From an uncultured Acidobacteriota bacterium (lineage in GTDB: Bacteria; Acidobacteriota; JAQAZP01): DNA of 64,000 nucleotides. Below, piece after piece: positions 2,211 through 8,263 of the stretch. The notes beneath the pieces are model-generated. The model made no database searches. It worked only from the letters and a program-made list of their open reading frames with translations, and had not been told where the DNA came from. Where the stretch lies: positions 32,001-96,000 of the forward strand of contig CAWIIB010000001.1 of assembly GCA_963836075.1 (NCBI GenBank), in the 5' to 3' direction. How positions within the stretch are numbered: the first letter of the stretch is position 1; each line of letters starts with the position of its first letter. The translations under genes were made by a program, and so were the position numbers.

Positions 2211-3106
2211 CGGGGGTCAGGGTGGGGATGGTTGTGGTGCCCCAGCGCTTCGGTGACCGGGTCAACCCCCACATTCCCCTCCATGCTCTGTCGAGTGGCG
2301 GGGCCTTCGACTCCGCTGGCGTCTTCCACCCGATGCCCTTCGACATGCAGGGGGACATCGAGGTGCTCGAGCGGCTGTTCGCCAAGCGGGTGCTCGACCT
2401 GATGGTGCGGCGAAAGCGCCTGAATACACGACTTCGCGACGAGATGCTGACGTGGGAGCACAGCGGGTTCTCGATGGACGGATCGGTCAAGGTGGTGGTG
2501 GGGGATTACGGGCGCCTAAGAAGGCAGGTCCGCTACCTGGCCCGTCCGGCGGTGTCGGCGGAGCGGGTGGCGTATGACAAGGCCGGCGGCACGGTCACCG
2601 TGCGAAGTTCGAAGAAGGTGCACGGAGTCCGCCCGGTGGTGGCCCAGTATGACGCGCTGACCTTCCTGTCCCTGCTGGCGCTGCAGGTGCCGCCGCCCGG
2701 GGTACACATGGTGCGCTACTACGGCCACTACTCGGTGCGGAGCCGGGCCGAGCGGAGGAGGAGGGCAGGGGAGGGGCCGGCGGCTATGCACAACGAAGCC
2801 CCACCGCCGGCGAGCGAGCGGCGGCGGCGCTGGGCGGAGTTGATCCGCCTGGTGTTCGAGGTTGATCCCTTGCGCTGCCACAAGTGCGGGGGCGAGATGA
2901 AGATCATCTCGTTCATCACCACGGCCCAGGACGAGGTGATCCGCCGCATCCTCGAGCACCTGGGGGTGAGCACGGTCGTTCCCCGGGCCCACGGGCCGCC
3001 CGAGTGGGCGGTGAAAAGCGAGCAGGCGGTTCAGGAGGCGTCGTCCCGGGACGAGGAGGACTTTTCGCAGGCGCCGCCCGGTTGGGACGAGTGGGAGCCC
3101 GCGTGA
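2210..3106 (+). CDS. IS91-family (Y2/HUH rolling-circle) transposase, N-terminal zinc-binding part missing
   Basis: QRFGDRVNPHIPLHAL (HUH-like), WEHSGFS, RYLARP, VRYYGHYS, and a C-terminal FEVDPLRCHKCGGEMKII...IRRILEHLG zinc-finger motif typical of Y2 transposases. Confidence 0.8.
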   Translation, partial: AGVRVGMVVVPQRFGDRVNPHIPLHALSSGGAFDSAGVFHPMPFDMQGDIEVLERLFAKRVLDLMVRRKRLNTRLRDEMLTWEHSGFSMDGSVKVVVGDYGRLRRQVRYLARPAVSAERVAYDKAGGTVTVRSSKKVHGVRPVVAQYDALTFLSLLALQVPPPGVHMVRYYGHYSVRSRAERRRRAGEGPAAMHNEAPPPASERRRRWAELIRLVFEVDPLRCHKCGGEMKIISFITTAQDEVIRRILEHLGVSTVVPRAHGPPEWAVKSEQAVQEASSRDEEDFSQAPPGWDEWEPA

Positions 3107-3326
3107 GACCCGGATCAGGGAGCGAGGACCCTTGGGGGACGACTCCGTTCGAATCACTCTTCGTCGCGGGCGATTCTCGTCATCGGGTCACGATCCCCCT
3201 CGTTGATCAGTCGGGGGCGCACCCACCAGCGGACAACCGGTCGATTTCCGCAGGAAAGCCCCTTCAGGTTCGACCAGCACGCTCTCATCCGGCATGAGCG
3301 GCTTGACGCTCGGAAAGGAAATCCCT
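2210..3326 (+). mobile_element. IS91-family element remnant, 3' end up to a putative oriIS split by the IS110 insertion (continues at 4968-4971)
   Basis: About 220 bp downstream of the transposase stop, removing the IS110 restores GGAAAGGAAATCCCTATCC, which resembles the AAATTCCTAT-type oriIS of IS91/ISCR elements. Confidence 0.6.
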
Positions 3327-3540
3327 TCTATGAGATTCGATGTCAAGACACATCTTCCCTGTACGCTCGAAGCACGTGGCATCGAACGTCTGACCCGCAG
3401 GCCATTGCAGCCGTTACAACAAAGCCGAGATCCTCTTCGCATGGGGTCATCGATCAACTGGAGTGGACCTGATGGTATCAGGATATCGCCACTCCAGATC
3501 TTCCCGGCGGTATCAAAGCGGTGATGTTCTTCAGAATGCG

Positions 3541-3738
3541 AGAACCACCCTTCTATTCGGGTCTCCGTGGACCATTGCCTTATTCGGTTCTTCGAGGGGG
3601 CATAACCTACCCTAGGGGTCTCCAACTGGTGGGACCAGGAATTCCTTGGATGCTTCCCCTCGAACCTTTTTCGCCTCGGACCGCTTTGTCTGCTCGGATT
3701 GTCTTCAGCTGTTTTGCTGCTACGGCCGGCAAGGCGAG
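3541..3738 (-). ncRNA. Candidate bridge RNA/seekRNA of the IS110 element (ends approximate)
   Basis: Two consecutive stem-loops with internal loops: 3664-3591 (TTCGAGGGG...CCCCTCGAA, inner CTGGT/ACCAG) and 3591-3541 (AGAACC...GGTTCT, inner GGTC/GACC). Loop segments match the element's target and donor junctions. Confidence 0.7.
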
Positions 3739-4798
3739 TTATGCCGCTTTCTTTTGATACTTCGCCGGGTCGTATGCCTCCTTGTTTTTCCACATGGCCA
3801 GGGTGATGGCCGCGATCCTGCGGGCGATGGTCAGCTTGGCCAGATTGGGTTTGACCTTCTCCTCGAGAAGCCGGCGGTAGTCGCTGTACAGCGGGTTCTT
3901 CGGCATCTGGGTGATCACCGTTGTGGCCGCACCCTTGAAGACCGCTTTGGCTGTGCGATTGAAGTTGCGATTGAGGCCACGTGTTCTCGTCACCGGTGCT
4001 TTCATCCACTGACTGTTTGGCTGCTGAACCCAGTCCGAAGAGGACCGCATGACGATGGCCAGACCACAGTAGGCCCAGAACTGCCGTGACGTTCTGAAGC
4101 GATGAGGAGAGACCACGATGGCCAGCAGCTGGGCGACACGGACCGGCCCCAGGCCTGGGGCGGTTTCCAGCACTTTGGCAATGGCATGTTTGTGAGCTTC
4201 GGCCACCAAGGCCTGCTGTGCGTCGGCTTTGATCCCCTCCAGGATATCCAGTTCCTGGCAGAGCAGCTGAACGGACTGACGAGTCCCACCGTTGAGCCGT
4301 TTCAGTTCTTCCTCCCTCCTCCCCGCCGAGTAGACCGCTTTGCCCGCACCCGGCTGAACACCGCGGGAACGATAAAAACTCTTGATCCGGTTCTTGGTCC
4401 GCACCACGTCCCCGGTAACCATCCCGTAGGCCCGGGCCAGGTCGCGTAAACTGGTGAAGGCCAGCGGCGCCTTGAAGATCTTCGCTCCCAGTGCACCCGT
4501 TCGCATCCGCTCGGCCAGGGCCATCCGCATCCAGTTCGTCGCTCTTGTTCCCCTGACTCTTTTCCCCGCGAACCACCGCGATCTCGTGACGTATGGGTGC
4601 CAGCAGCTCGAACAGCCACTGACTTTGAGTGCCCTCCTCGAGGCAGAGGTGCAGTCGTCCGGGAATCAGCCGAAGATACTCCACCAACGACTGGCCGTTG
4701 GTTTCCACCACATCCGTCCGGAGCGTTTTGCCCTTCTCGCTGAGCACGGCAAAAGTGCAGCTTGACGAATGGCCGTCCAGTCCGATAAAACGGTTCAT
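3739..4798 (-). CDS. IS110 family DEDD recombinase/transposase (frameshift near 4530)
   Basis: RBS AGGAGG. FIGLDGH, CLEEG and KSDELDA supply the DEDD residues. C-terminal half has LETAPGLGPV, RFRTSRQFWAYCGLAIVMRSSS (catalytic Ser region) and IARRIAAITLAMWK. Confidence 0.92.
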
Positions 4799-5278
4799 GT
4801 GTATCCTCCTTTGATTGTGGATAGAACTTAGTTTTGGGATAACCAAGTTTGCCCCACGGCAAAGGAGGATGCCAACTTTTGTTGCTTGGACGCGTTGGGG
4901 TTGGCTTGCGCATCGGCTTGGTCCCTGGGAAAGCGGTGCGTCAGACGGGATATCTCGTATAATGCCTATCCTTTTGTACCAGTATCAAACCCTACGAGAG
5001 ACTATCAGTGCATTAGGTGGAAAAAATTTGCCACCAGGCTGCCCGCGGATGGCGAAAGTGTAAATAAATTCTTACAGTTGTTTGGCGTCATTGATCACAC
5101 GGCAGGATGAAATCGACGGATACTATTTAATTTGTGGGACTTAGACGGTAGAAACAAACTGACAACACGATGTATCCTCTTATGGCATAGTCGTTGCGAT
5201 ATGGTAGAATGGGTATCGACCAGATTACAGTGCAACTCGAAAAATCGGAGCATAGTTGCGGTTATGCAGATACATCTC

Positions 5279-7447
5279 ATGAAAATCGTTAGCACCCTTA
5301 TCATAATGCTTTCTGTTTCTGGTTCCGGGCACGGCTCTTGCCGTCATTGAAATCGGTGAACTGAGTTTCGACGACCTCGCCTTCCGAGGACCGGATCATG
5401 TCCACCGATTACACCGGGCTGATCGATGCCTGCCCCGGCTACGAGGTGGCCGACTTGGGAGCGACGCTTGTTTGGGATCGGACCTCAATACCTGGATCGA
5501 TTACGGACCCCACGATTTCTTCCCGGGAGAAGATGGGGACTTCAACAGCACTGCGCCGCCGACCCAGTATTTCGAGCTGGCCTTTGTGGACAACCTGGCC
5601 ATAAATGAATCTGGACCTGATATCGCTATTTTTGAGCTTGGCGGGGCCCAATGCCGTGCCAGTTAGTCTGGATATGGACTCGATCCTCAACCCGGGCGCG
5701 CTCACCAGCAACGAGGTAGTGGTGACCACGTCGTTGCTGGCAACTAACATCTGCGGCGAAACAGTCAACGTGGGTTACCTGGAACTGGACGGATCTCGGT
5801 TTGTCACCAAGGTGAGACGATCTACCGGTTGTTTCTCTCCTCTCCGCTGGGGGTTAATGGGGAGATCTGCGCGCCGCCCACCGGCTATGCAAACCTCGGG
5901 GTACCGGAGATCGCTGCCGTTGGCGCTCTTCTACTCAGGCCCGGAAACTCAATGATGCTCCTCTGGTGGACGAGTTGGAGGGTGTGATGGGCCAGCCTGT
6001 CCTGATGCGGACCATCCACCTGCATGCCGTGGCCCGGGATGACGGTTTGCCCGTTGGCGGTCAGCTCAGCTGTCGAGTGGATCGTGGAGCAGGCCATCGG
6101 GCCGGTGGACTTTGACGATCAGAATCAGTTTGAGACAGACGTCCACCTCAGCAGTTGAGGGATATTACCAGTTCCTGGCTGAGGTCAGCTGACGGAGAAC
6201 TGACCACCACGCGGACCATATCGATAATGGTCAGTATCCCCGACAGCACGCCACCAAGCACGCCGGACGGGCTGGATGGCTGGGCCACCTCCGGTTCGAG
6301 GATTGAGTTGGTTTGGAACGATGCCACCGACAATGTTGATGTATCGCATTACGAGATTTACCGTGACGGCTCGCTGGCCGGGACAACCACGGAGACTTCA
6401 TATGTGGACGAGGAGAGCCTCCAACTTCTCACCTCATACGCCTACGAGGTGGTGGCGGTGGATATCTCGGACAATCCCTCGACCGCCAGCGATTCGGTGG
6501 TGGTGTCCACCCTAGGCCAGATCGTCGAAGTGCTGGTGGGCTCGGCCAGTGACGACGCGGAAGAGGAACTGGACGGTACCGTGGTGCTGGGCAGCTCCGA
6601 TCTCGACATGGTGGACAACGGTGCGGCCGGTCTGCAGGTGGTGGGCCTGCGCTTTTCCTCGGTGGCCGTTCCGCAGTTTGTCGAGGTGCTTAGCGCCTGG
6701 ATCACGTTCACCGCCGATGGGACCGAGACAGACCCGGCCTCGCTGGTGATCAGGGCGGAGGACAGCGGAAATGCCGCCCCCTTCACCACGGATCCCATGA
6801 ATCTCTCCACCCGCAGCACAACGACCGCCTTAGTGGCCTGGGACAACCTACCCCAGTGGCCGGCGGAGCATTATTTTCACAGCAGTCCGGATCTGACCCT
6901 GGTGGTTCAGGAACTGTTCAACCATCCGGACTGGGCGGAGGGCAACGCCATGGCCTTCCTGATCAGCGGCACTGGCCTGCGGCGCGTCAAGTCGTTCGAG
7001 GGTGGCTATGTGCCATGGCTCCGATGTCCACGTCGAATACGAGTGGCAGAATACCCTGGCGGACCTACTCAGTTTCGTGGCCAAGCTGAGCAGGCCGGGT
7101 AAGCCTGGAGTGGGAAACCGCCAGCGAAGTGGACAACGCCGGGTTCAATCTCTGGCGCTCGGATTCAAAGAATGGACCATACAAGCAGATCAACAAAGAA
7201 CTGATCCCGGCCGAAGGCGGTGTCAGTTGGGGTGCCCACTATCAGCTCATCGATGACCGCGTGAGCAGCGGGAAGACTTATTACTACAAACTGGAAGACG
7301 TCAATTTCGCTGGGATCAGTACTTCCATGGCCCGGTTGAGGCCATAGTCCAGGTCCTGGGGGCCGTATTGCCTTCATGACAGCACGCCACCCGGCACGCC
7401 GGCTCCCATATACCGGTGAAGTCTTTCCACTGCCACTCTGCAGCTGA
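5279..7447 (+). CDS. Secreted multidomain protein with PKD-like and fibronectin type III domains (multiple frameshifts)
   Basis: Signal-peptide-like MKIVSTLIIMLSVS. Then DDGLP...VSDGELTTT (PKD-like), DSTPPSTPDGL...IELVWNDATDNVDVSHYEIYRDG (FN3), SDDAEE...GLRF...SPDL module, and LEWETASEVDNAGFNLWRS...YYYKLEDV. Confidence 0.65.
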
Positions 7448-7453
7448 TCGGCA

Positions 7454-8263
7454 GTGAACTTGCTCCTCATGGTCCGTATGGACCAGTGCACTGCGAGCAC
7501 TACCGGCCCCGGCGGCAGGAACGGACCAACCTGCACCTCGCGGCCGCGAGAACCTGCAGCTGTTCTGCGACGCCCGTTTTACCGTAACCGCCAGTTGCTC
7601 ACCGGTCTCTGCCGTTCGGCACCGGCGGCAAGATCGACACCTTGTTGCACAAAGCTGGGGCCGAGGACCTTCTGGCCGCCGCGACATTGATCGGCTGCTA
7701 CCATGGCCGAGGCCGTGACGAACTGGTCCACCGCGCATTAAGGACTTCATCGACGAGCAGCTGCCGTTCAAACGGTTCCAGCAGAATCATGCCTTCTACT
7801 ACATGGCGCTGATCGCCTTTGCCCTGTTCGAGGCATTCAAGGTCGATGTCTCCGATCCGGTCGTGTCGGGCACCGCCTATCCCACAACGCTGCTGCGAAC
7901 CATAATCGACGTGGCCGACAAGATCGTCTCTCATAGCGGACAAATCGTTCTGAAGGTGACAAGGCCGGTGTTGAGGCGGCTGCGGTTCGACGAACTCTGG
8001 CGCCGTTGTTCTTGCCGCCACCGATCCCCAGGCTGGCGTAGCCGGCGGTCGGAAAAATCAAAATAAAACACGGATCGCAACCGTTCCAAGGGACCGGTGT
8101 TGTCATCGATGTCGCAATCGGCAGGGAGTCCAGGGGAAACCGCGGGTTTCACGGATTTCGTCCCCACTCACCCGATCCGCCGGGCAGCCGTAGGGATTTG
8201 ACCGAAGGAACCGGAATCTCGGCGTGGAAATCAGAAGGGAGTCAGGGAATCACTCAATTTAGG
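7454..8263 (+). mobile_element. IS1380-family remnant (C-terminal transposase fragment and right end)
   Basis: YHGRGRDELVHRALKDFIDEQLPFKRFQQNHAFYYMALIAFALFEAFK. The end ACTCAATTTAGG (8252-8263) resembles the ISEcp1-type IRR ...AATTTAGG. Confidence 0.7.

Follow-up and report, generated by a model that had tools for sequence, protein, structure and literature searches.

The region described here lies in a 64,000-nt stretch of DNA from an uncultured Acidobacteriota bacterium (assembly GCA_963836075.1, contig CAWIIB010000001.1, positions 32,001 to 96,000), and this whole stretch is referred to below as the window. A 1,641-nt (1.64-kb) insertion sequence (IS) of the IS1111 type, a member of the IS110 family, spans window positions 3327-4967 with its transposase gene on the minus strand, and it is situated within the 3' end of an element of the IS91 family of rolling-circle transposable elements. 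The features of the locus are listed below in order of position, where LE and RE denote the left and right ends of the IS1111-type element and R1 is a covariance model of its RNA.

2222-3106, plus strand: 5'-truncated IS91-family (Y2) transposase gene; PF04986 Y2_Tnp, E 1.3e-17; residues 161-456 of a 456-aa full-length copy
3107-3326, plus strand: IS91 3' non-coding tail including the core CT (3325-3326) and the inner portion of the origin-side terminal motif, with TTGAC at 3303-3307 and AAGGAAATCC at 3315-3324; homologous to two other IS91 tails in the genome, the motif being alignable to other IS91 ends
3327-3738, minus strand: RE of the IS1111-type element; 412 nt, non-coding, 3' of the transposase gene, ending ...CATAGAAG; carries TTGACA (-35 half of a predicted junction promoter)
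3524-3667, minus strand: putative bridge/seekRNA scaffold of two stem-loop modules; R1, 132.3 bits, E 4.9e-38
3548-3559, minus strand: donor-binding loop, 3' side, CGAATAGAAGGG; contains the RE terminal ATAGAAG, 7/7 against the RE end
3607-3613, minus strand: left target guide plus core, 3' side of the target loop, AGGGTAG; one G:T wobble against flank 4966-4972
3638-3647, minus strand: right target guide, 5' side of the target loop, AAGGAATTCC; 9/10 against flank 3315-3324
3739-4798, minus strand: IS110-family DEDD transposase gene; PF02371 on the 263-aa C-terminal frame; single-base frameshift near 4518-4531
4799-4965, minus strand: LE leader, 167 nt, starting GCATTATACGAG in transposase orientation
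4966-4973, plus strand: second core CT (4966-4967) followed by the last six IS91 bases, ATCCTT; host DNA beyond

The trinucleotide CCT is repeated at 3324-3326 and 4965-4967 of the window sequence, with the left flank up to 3326 terminating in CGGAAAGGAAATCCCT and the right flank from 4968 reading ATCCTTTTGT, and the distance from the stop codon of the Y2 gene to the left junction is 220 nt. A preliminary description of this DNA had reported this arrangement, and the ends it assigned are supported independently of the 3-nt repeat. In transposase orientation the LE start (GCATTATA...) and the RE end (...CATAGAAG) are kept in relatives, the donor-loop sequence ATAGAAGG of the RNA is identical to the RE end, and the target-loop guides match the flanks immediately adjoining both ends. 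In addition, a 92%-identical, full-length copy of the IS91 element in the same genome (C9:2234732-2234761) reads TTGACGCCGGGAAAGGAAATCCCTACTCTT without a break, 177 nt after its gene. Only CT (or CCT) is common to both junctions, and there is no larger target duplication. Although the preliminary description took CCT as the core, and that repeat is indeed present, the shared core is more probably the dinucleotide CT because the junctions of a related element (locus L011, discussed below) have only CT in common. The RE (412 nt) exceeds the LE (167 nt) in length, which is the layout of the IS1111 group, where the longer non-coding region lies 3' of the transposase gene (PMC11208160, PMC11187229; these papers, and the other PMC sources below, are cited from excerpts). 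Sub-terminal inverted repeats in the IS1111 group measure 7-17 bp; by eye, a candidate imperfect repeat of about 8-10 bp can be read in the window element (LE ...TATACGAGAT versus RE ...ATCTCATAGA), and the ends of the relative at L127 have a different pair of arms, GGGGCA and TGCCCC. When the ends are joined, TTGACA from the RE and CATTAT from the LE are separated by 17 nt, an arrangement kept in the window (3327-3370 and 4940-4965), L127 and L011 that would constitute a circle-junction promoter.

The DNA on either side of the element belongs to the origin-side end of an IS91-family element. Comparison of a full-length Y2 protein from the same genome with the window (tblastn) covers residues 161-456 at 83% identity, so that the first 160 residues, including the N-terminal zinc domain (PF14319), are missing from the window copy. 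Two full-length copies in this genome, at C9:2469017 and C9:2477676, have Y2 genes 100% identical to each other and run identically to ...AAGCTTTTCACTATACAT (...CACTATACAT) before diverging at the next base, and IS91 fragments in the genome terminate in ...TCACTATACTT and ...TCCCTGTCCTT. The motif sits 177-220 nt past the Y2 gene in the own-genome copies, and the six bases that follow CT in uninterrupted copies are ATACAT, ATACTT, ACTCTT or GTCCTT, compared with ATCCTT at 4968-4973 of the window. The same end is seen in a second genome, where L183, an uninterrupted 91%-identical relative of the IS91 element interrupted at L011, reads ...GGGTTGAAACTCCTATCCGC; L183 and the far flank of the interrupted element have only CTATCCGC in common and then diverge. 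Moreover, in plasmid records the string ...CTTCCTATAC is found 224-250 nt past the stop codons of ISCR1, ISVsa3/ISCR2 and a third IS91-family gene (reading ...GGTTTATACTTCCTATACCC, ...GCGTTTATTCTTCCTATACG and ...GGTTGAACTTCCTATACCC, respectively), in agreement with the 232 bp given for the ISCR1 origin region (PMC6218425). IS91-family elements insert beside short specific sequences (PMC13181058), and the origin end of such an element is expected to adjoin a specific tetranucleotide such as CTTG or GTTC; the bases after the ends seen here vary among copies and reveal no common tetranucleotide, the terminal base of these elements being placed only to within 1-2 nt. The insertion point is the CT within ...TTC-CT-ATAC..., and because the last six bases lie beyond the insertion, the IS1111-type element must have split a pre-existing IS91 end. 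Taken together, these alignments, in which uninterrupted IS91 relatives from both genomes and the ISCR elements all end at the motif as had been proposed, support the view that the element's target is the terminal motif on the origin (oriIS) side of rolling-circle elements of the IS91 family. Elsewhere in the window, at 7565-7660, there is a weak match to Y2 over 32 residues.

A search of Rfam 15 over window positions 2800-5400, at E values up to 1, returned no match, and the RNA was therefore modelled de novo. In relatives, the RE has a scaffold that is conserved apart from two hypervariable segments, and a 47-sequence alignment contains 25 consensus pairs, 16 of which show compensatory changes. 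The resulting model, R1, matches the window once (3524-3667, minus strand) and gives 79 hits in 81 sources and 75 hits in 80 sources; it superseded a first regular expression for the scaffold, which found 80 of 161 sequences and mis-parsed L007, L138 and L151. The two RNA modules are alike, each consisting of a stem around an internal loop and a capped hairpin, one loop being assigned to target binding and the other to donor binding. With loop columns assigned from the covariance-model alignment, the target loop carries, on its 5' side (AAGGAATTCC, then T), the reverse complement of the 10 nt beyond the RE and, on its 3' side (AGGGT-AG, then GT), a segment that runs in the sense of the left flank and core. 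This order, with the top-strand complement first, is that of IS1111-type seekRNAs (PMC11187229). Two imperfections are present, namely a U:T mismatch at guide position 7 (window 3641) and a G:T wobble (window 3610). Candidate guides named in the preliminary description (GGAAUUCCU and AGGGUAGG) fall in the two variable sides of this target loop, and its identification of them is borne out by the covariance-supported structure. The string obtained there by joining them was one base out of register, however; properly aligned it reads ...TCC-CT-A..., as does the site, and the supposed discrepancy between TTCCTA and TCCCTA disappears.

The right guide of the window element scores 9/10 on its own flank and at most 6/10 on the flanks of seven other elements compared, and in the full guide-against-flank matrix an own flank is never outscored by a foreign one, with ties at 7-9/10 inside the L011-type group. 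The best match in the genome to the site predicted by the guides is C9:1820671-1820700, where the right guide fits 10/10; this site is unoccupied and lies beside a 40-nt remnant of Y2 coding sequence. We consider it likely, on the basis of these matches and of the evidence for the target given above, that this is an IS1111-group element whose RE-encoded bridge/seekRNA reads both sides of a CT core in the IS91 oriIS motif.

Relatives of the element were collected from 80 genome loci (up to 59% identity) and 80 metagenome loci (up to 72%); the contigs of the two closest proteins, P0001 (92%) and P0002 (88%), are not among these 160 loci. Origin-like guides were marked at L011, L012, L127, L126, L163, L118 and L121 before any search for Y2 genes was made. 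A profile search then placed a Y2 frame directly beyond the RE and on the opposite strand at four of them, as listed here.

L127: junction about 224 nt after the Y2 frame; right guide 9/10 against its own flank
L121: junction about 225 nt after the Y2 frame; right guide 7/10 against its own flank
L163: Y2 gene moved next to the end motif by an internal deletion in IS91; right guide 9/10 against its own flank
L011: Y2 gene moved next to the end motif by an internal deletion in IS91; right guide 9/10 against its own flank

The Y2 assignments at L011, L127 and L163 are confirmed by Pfam, and the 91-aa fragment at L121 can be aligned with the C-terminal part of the L127 protein (E 3e-10); L012 is apparently the same insertion as L127. 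In IS orientation the right flanks read GAAAAACAAACGCATAG (L127), GAAATTCAACCGCATAG (L163) and TCGAAACAAACGACC (L011), and their reverse complements adjoin CT as ...TTTGTTTTTC, ...TTGAATTTC and ...TTTGTTTCGA, respectively. The window element and these four relatives, which come from different phyla, occupy a base-identical position relative to CT in the same orientation. Flanks of the same type, with 8/10 matches, are present at L126, L013 and L133. The window geometry was seen in no further locus among the 160. Use of the own-genome Y2 protein in jackhmmer also gave L142 and L014, both of which were dropped, L142 having no Pfam support and L014 being a fragment about 3 kb away. L118 has origin-like guides and about 200 nt of flank, and no IS91 element is demonstrated beside it. 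The same is true of L009/L120 (1600-3170), the guides of which are origin-like (GAGAATTTCC and ACGGGTAG); here the left flank fits 7/8 and the right flank only 2/10, perhaps because the site was half-matched or was rearranged later.

Other arrangements near IS91 genes were also observed. At L151:1620-1660 / L152:1-20, an IS91 gene (Y2_Tnp plus Zn_Tnp_IS91) is followed about 170 nt on by ...CCCTTTTTCCCTGTAC, which abuts the LE of a different IS110 relative with the genes parallel, the opposite of the window, and a left guide matching about 7/10. At L166:1040-1270, the LE of a distant relative begins about 230 nt past a Y2 stop, again in parallel orientation, and about 15-20 nt beyond TTTCTTCCATCC, a string resembling an IS91 end. 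Neither L151 nor L166 is counted as a same-site case because the Y2 gene is upstream and parallel. The right flank at L103:1630-1660 (GTATCATTAAGG) resembles the element's own LE start (GTATCATACG) and fits the right guide 3/10; this site may represent an insertion beside an LE remnant or a half-matched event. The sister clade of the window element (L105, L107, L108, L109 and L113) has an apparent GG/CC core and a hairpin-like target, with a left flank of ...ATTCCCGCTTTCGC and a right flank of GAATGACGG.

Further occurrences of the window lineage were sought among Logan contigs. Among the matches listed, 20 runs from 9 studies carry part of the stretch, and contigs of four runs (X1, X5, X6 and X9; marine sediment or marine; four studies) were compared at 85% likeness or above. 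Contig cover is almost limited to 3301-4975, as expected for a repeat with varying flanks. No circle-junction joint was listed for these contigs, and neither this negative nor the uncovered parts of the stretch are given any weight here. The X1 contigs depart from the window before 3315 with GAAATATTGACGCCGGCT and behind 4969 with ACATACACC..., so that a further copy of the motif surrounds the X1 element, with TTGAC...AAGGAAATCC-CT to one side of it and CT-AT then ACAT to the other; the resulting ATACAT is an end variant that other IS91 copies of the window's genome also have. Moreover, both imperfections of the window guides are absent from some of these contigs: 3641 A>T in X1, X6 and X9 abolishes the right-guide mismatch, and 3610 C>T in X1, X5 and X6 abolishes the wobble. 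An X1 contig further has 3611 C>A, 3613 T>A and 3614 A>G, and a hand reading of its left guide with these changes fits the contig's own ATACA flank 7/8. Taken with the 10/10 fit of the window's right-guide variant to the unoccupied IS91 remnant at C9:1820671-1820700, these changes imply that, within one lineage, variation in the guides follows variation in the origin.

A tree of the C-terminal approximately 260 residues of the transposase (132 rows, quick search) groups the window element with L102, L103 and the L105-L113 clade, all of which have unrelated guides. A separate, starred clade beside L013/L133 comprises L011, L126 and L127, and L121 and L118 have other positions, on branches that are long or unresolved. 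The protein tree is mirrored by the RNA scaffolds, with CGAGGGG paired with CCCCCTCG in the window as in L103, and ACAGGGG in the L011 clade. The RE has therefore not simply been swapped between lineages, and targeting of IS91 origins either arose more than once or was often lost.

Several observations weigh against a general specialisation on IS91 origins. The Y2 geometry is present at only 4 of the 160 loci plus the window, many flanks being too short to tell, and the majority of the 160 relatives differ from the window element in both guides and sites, among them the nearest relatives for which DNA is available, L102 (72%) and L103 (64%), whose guides are unrelated to that of the window element. 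At least four changes are required to place the origin-type group on the transposase tree, so that this targeting is scattered and forms no clean clade. No Y2 gene was found beside L126 (2.6 kb of flank) or L133 (1 kb), nor within the 95 nt of flank at L013. The two loose ends of the X1 element are not tied to one molecule, and the contigs concerned are single and short. In addition, a fixed-register junction rule (donor-loop match of at least 6/7 plus guide match of at least 7/10) resolved only 11 of 124 distinct guide/flank pairs, with a register learned from the same elements; this table is not taken as an enrichment statistic because the register of RE end, core and guide shifts by 1-2 nt in many relatives. 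Finally, most own-genome copies of the motif, which is about 30-40 nt long, have no adjoining Y2 gene, and the motif resembles a sigma-70 promoter. The proposal that homologues share the site stands in part, for L011, L127, L163, L121 and the X1 contigs and not for most of the 160 loci, L102 and L103 included. The window lineage appears to be specialised on the IS91-origin target, and the specialisation is patchy.

The observations on the motif raise the question of whether the target is instead a host repeat, promoter-like or in the form of a hairpin like those of repetitive extragenic palindromic (REP) sequences, that is also found at some IS91 ends, in which case the element would be no IS91 specialist. 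In its own-genome form the motif consists of TTGAC, 17 nt and TAnnnT, and it is frequently preceded by GGGATTTC, which is able to pair with GAAATCCC just before CT. A loose pattern for this motif finds 17 sites in the genome compared with 2 in a reversed-sequence control, and a full Y2 gene is present within 1.5 kb upstream in only 3 of them; the flanks of L126 and L133 likewise have no Y2 gene, and targeting of REP sequences has been documented for ISPa11 and ISPpu9 in excerpted sources. Nevertheless, the loose pattern is promoter-shaped by construction, and the subset of sites with conserved spacers includes the window and C9:2234732, both beside Y2, as well as C9:1820671, beside a Y2 remnant. 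Identical IS91 copies also diverge straight after the motif, and elements with differing guides have struck the same position, that of the ISCR1/ISCR2 end motif, in unrelated phyla. Because outward promoters have been reported in the ISCR1 origin region (PMC6218425), a promoter-like appearance is no argument against the motif being an IS91 end, and we regard the host-repeat explanation as improbable. Solo IS91-end motifs without a full Y2 gene occur at C9:1916166-1916231, C9:1818148, C9:1820671, C9:206944 and C9:2036944, and two solo motifs stand in tandem, 35 nt apart. Such a motif comprises a possible hairpin (arms GGGATTTC and GAAATCCC) and a sigma-70-like -35/-10 pair, and these sites may be IS91 remnants, non-autonomous derivatives or leftover outward promoters.

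The insertion might also be a single event, in which the element reached this IS91 end by accident or owing to an incomplete match, the resemblance to cases elsewhere being coincidental, as could be supposed from the presence of one copy in the genome, the imperfect fit of both guides to the window site and the use of other guides by the nearest relatives. Five loci in different phyla with the same base position relative to CT and the same orientation, guides that co-vary with the local origin sequence, and metagenome contigs that supply a further occupied copy together with guide variants lacking the two imperfections all make this very improbable. A reversed sequence of events, in which the IS91 element transposed beside a resident IS110-family element with the IS end as its target, could be suggested by the insertion of IS91-family elements beside short specific sequences (PMC13181058). 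This idea is practically refuted by the position of ATCCTT (4968-4973), which lies beyond the IS and 1.64 kb from the rest of the motif, and by the same split both in the X1 contigs and at L011, for which L183 provides the uninterrupted comparison. Insertion of an IS1111-group element, probably guided by its RNA, into a pre-existing IS91 end is the best account of the locus.

The transposase of the window copy is interrupted by the frameshift. Its 263-aa C-terminal frame (3739-4530) matches PF02371 (E 5.2e-11), and the 89-aa N-terminal piece alone has no Pfam match; homologues are 350-352 aa long and have both PF01548 and PF02371, as does the 352-aa P0001, to which the first 67 residues of the window transposase are identical. 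The C-terminal frame is 92% identical to P0001, and a tblastn alignment to the same protein, which at its start runs into the out-of-frame stretch, gives 86%; with residues 1-67 identical and the C-terminal frame at 92%, the protein has a mosaic look when 4531-4798 is compared with 3739-4530. Every X1, X5 and X6 contig over the frameshift site is one base shorter at 4520-4525, and those of X9 are not; the extra base in the window may be a mutation or an assembly error. Neighbouring genes also look broken, with an acetyltransferase-like frame split between 297-551 and 397-738 and a regulator-like minus-strand frame split at 1233-1707; whether these reflect a pseudogene-rich region or assembly indels bears on how the frameshift is read. 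The window element is the sole full copy in its genome, which otherwise has one 139-nt fragment (C9:1083543-1083681) that is 81% identical to the leader and gene start and lies about 2.5 kb from an IS91 fragment with an intact end motif (about C9:1081066). Given the frameshifted transposase, the absence of a second full copy from the genome and the 5' truncation of the host IS91, the window copy is probably inactive.

By analogy with IS621, ISEc11 and ISPa11, the RNA encoded in the window probably guided this insertion. The transposase would act together with the bridge/seekRNA from the element's own RE, which is predicted to pair over about 10 nt towards the IS91 interior and, towards the terminal bases of IS91, over about 5 nt together with the core. 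Since the recognised sequence falls almost wholly within the IS91 end, a matching end would make any IS91 copy a landing site, wherever it is located. The RNA-loaded transposase would recombine a circular copy into CT, the circle junction having assembled the putative promoter from the RE TTGACA and, 17 nt away, the LE CATTAT, and insertion would be orientation-specific, with the IS transposase antiparallel to the Y2 gene. Such an insertion would part the last six or so IS91 bases from the rest of the origin. IS91-family transposases are thought to cut beside a flanking tetranucleotide (PMC13181058), and with the last six bases, on the presumed cut side, parted from the sub-terminal origin, the IS91 copy concerned should be immobilised; the insertion would thus cripple the IS91 origin. 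Hitch-hiking on IS91 transposition would require that the Y2 enzyme still recognise the split end, an idea that the present data do not support.

An IS1111-group element that targets a conserved transposon end, in an orientation-specific manner and a few bases inside that end, is said to have been described by Partridge and Hall in 2003. The window element likewise has its target in the conserved end of another transposable element; its target, however, is the origin end of an HUH/Y2 element of the IS91 family rather than an inverted repeat of a DDE transposon, and the two transposases are distant, since a tblastn search of 72,556 plasmid records with the 263-aa piece of the transposase found no match, and hence no cultured plasmid-borne example. 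Reportedly, IS1383 inserts into the inverted repeats of IS1384 (Muller et al. in 2001), which is again a case of an IS110-family element targeting the ends of another IS and differs in the family targeted. Targets already known for the IS1111 group are the Tn21 repeats, the IS1384 repeats, attC sites and REP sequences, to which the IS91-family origin would add a further class, the first from a rolling-circle element. Because the ends of other mobile elements are already known targets of the group, this would be a new target class and not a new mechanism and, with the mechanism established, the finding extends the known picture without changing it. In common with ISEc11, ISKpn4, ISPst6 and ISPa11, the window element has a guide RNA encoded 3' of the transposase gene, a segment complementary to the top strand that precedes the bottom-strand match, close relatives that have been retargeted (as for ISEc11 and ISXne4) and a predicted circle-junction promoter, whereas the targets of those seekRNA elements are a short linear site, attC sites and REP sequences (PMC11187229). 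With IS621 it has in common a target loop, a donor loop, a CT core and guides for both strands around the core; IS621, however, belongs to the IS110 group and has its RNA in the LE, whereas the RNA of the window element is in the RE and has a long right guide of about 10 nt (PMC11208160). Our literature searches, the coverage of which ended short of supplementary target tables, found no IS110 or IS1111 element reported to target an IS91 or ISCR origin, in keeping with the preliminary description, and IS91 is mentioned 0 times in the text of PMC11187229 and PMC11208160.

It is possible, although we hold this wider proposal only tentatively and think it somewhat less probable than its opposite, that several IS1111-type lineages have retuned their guides to the nick-proximal CT of the IS91/ISCR origin, each being fitted to the local subfamily, and that they are habitual hyperparasites and a natural brake on IS91 elements. 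If so, these elements would have in IS91 ends a landing pad that is safe, present in many copies and carried along by horizontal transfer, and the origin hairpin would be parted from the nick site at every insertion. The IS91 subfamilies with different guides, together with the single-base variants that track origins in metagenomes, form a natural guide/target series that would be useful in working out the rules by which bridge RNAs encoded in the right end and having long right guides pair with their targets. Moreover, if insertion does disable the origin, these elements would represent a natural means of immobilising elements of the IS91/ISCR type, and the brake would extend to the ISCR elements that are associated with resistance genes.

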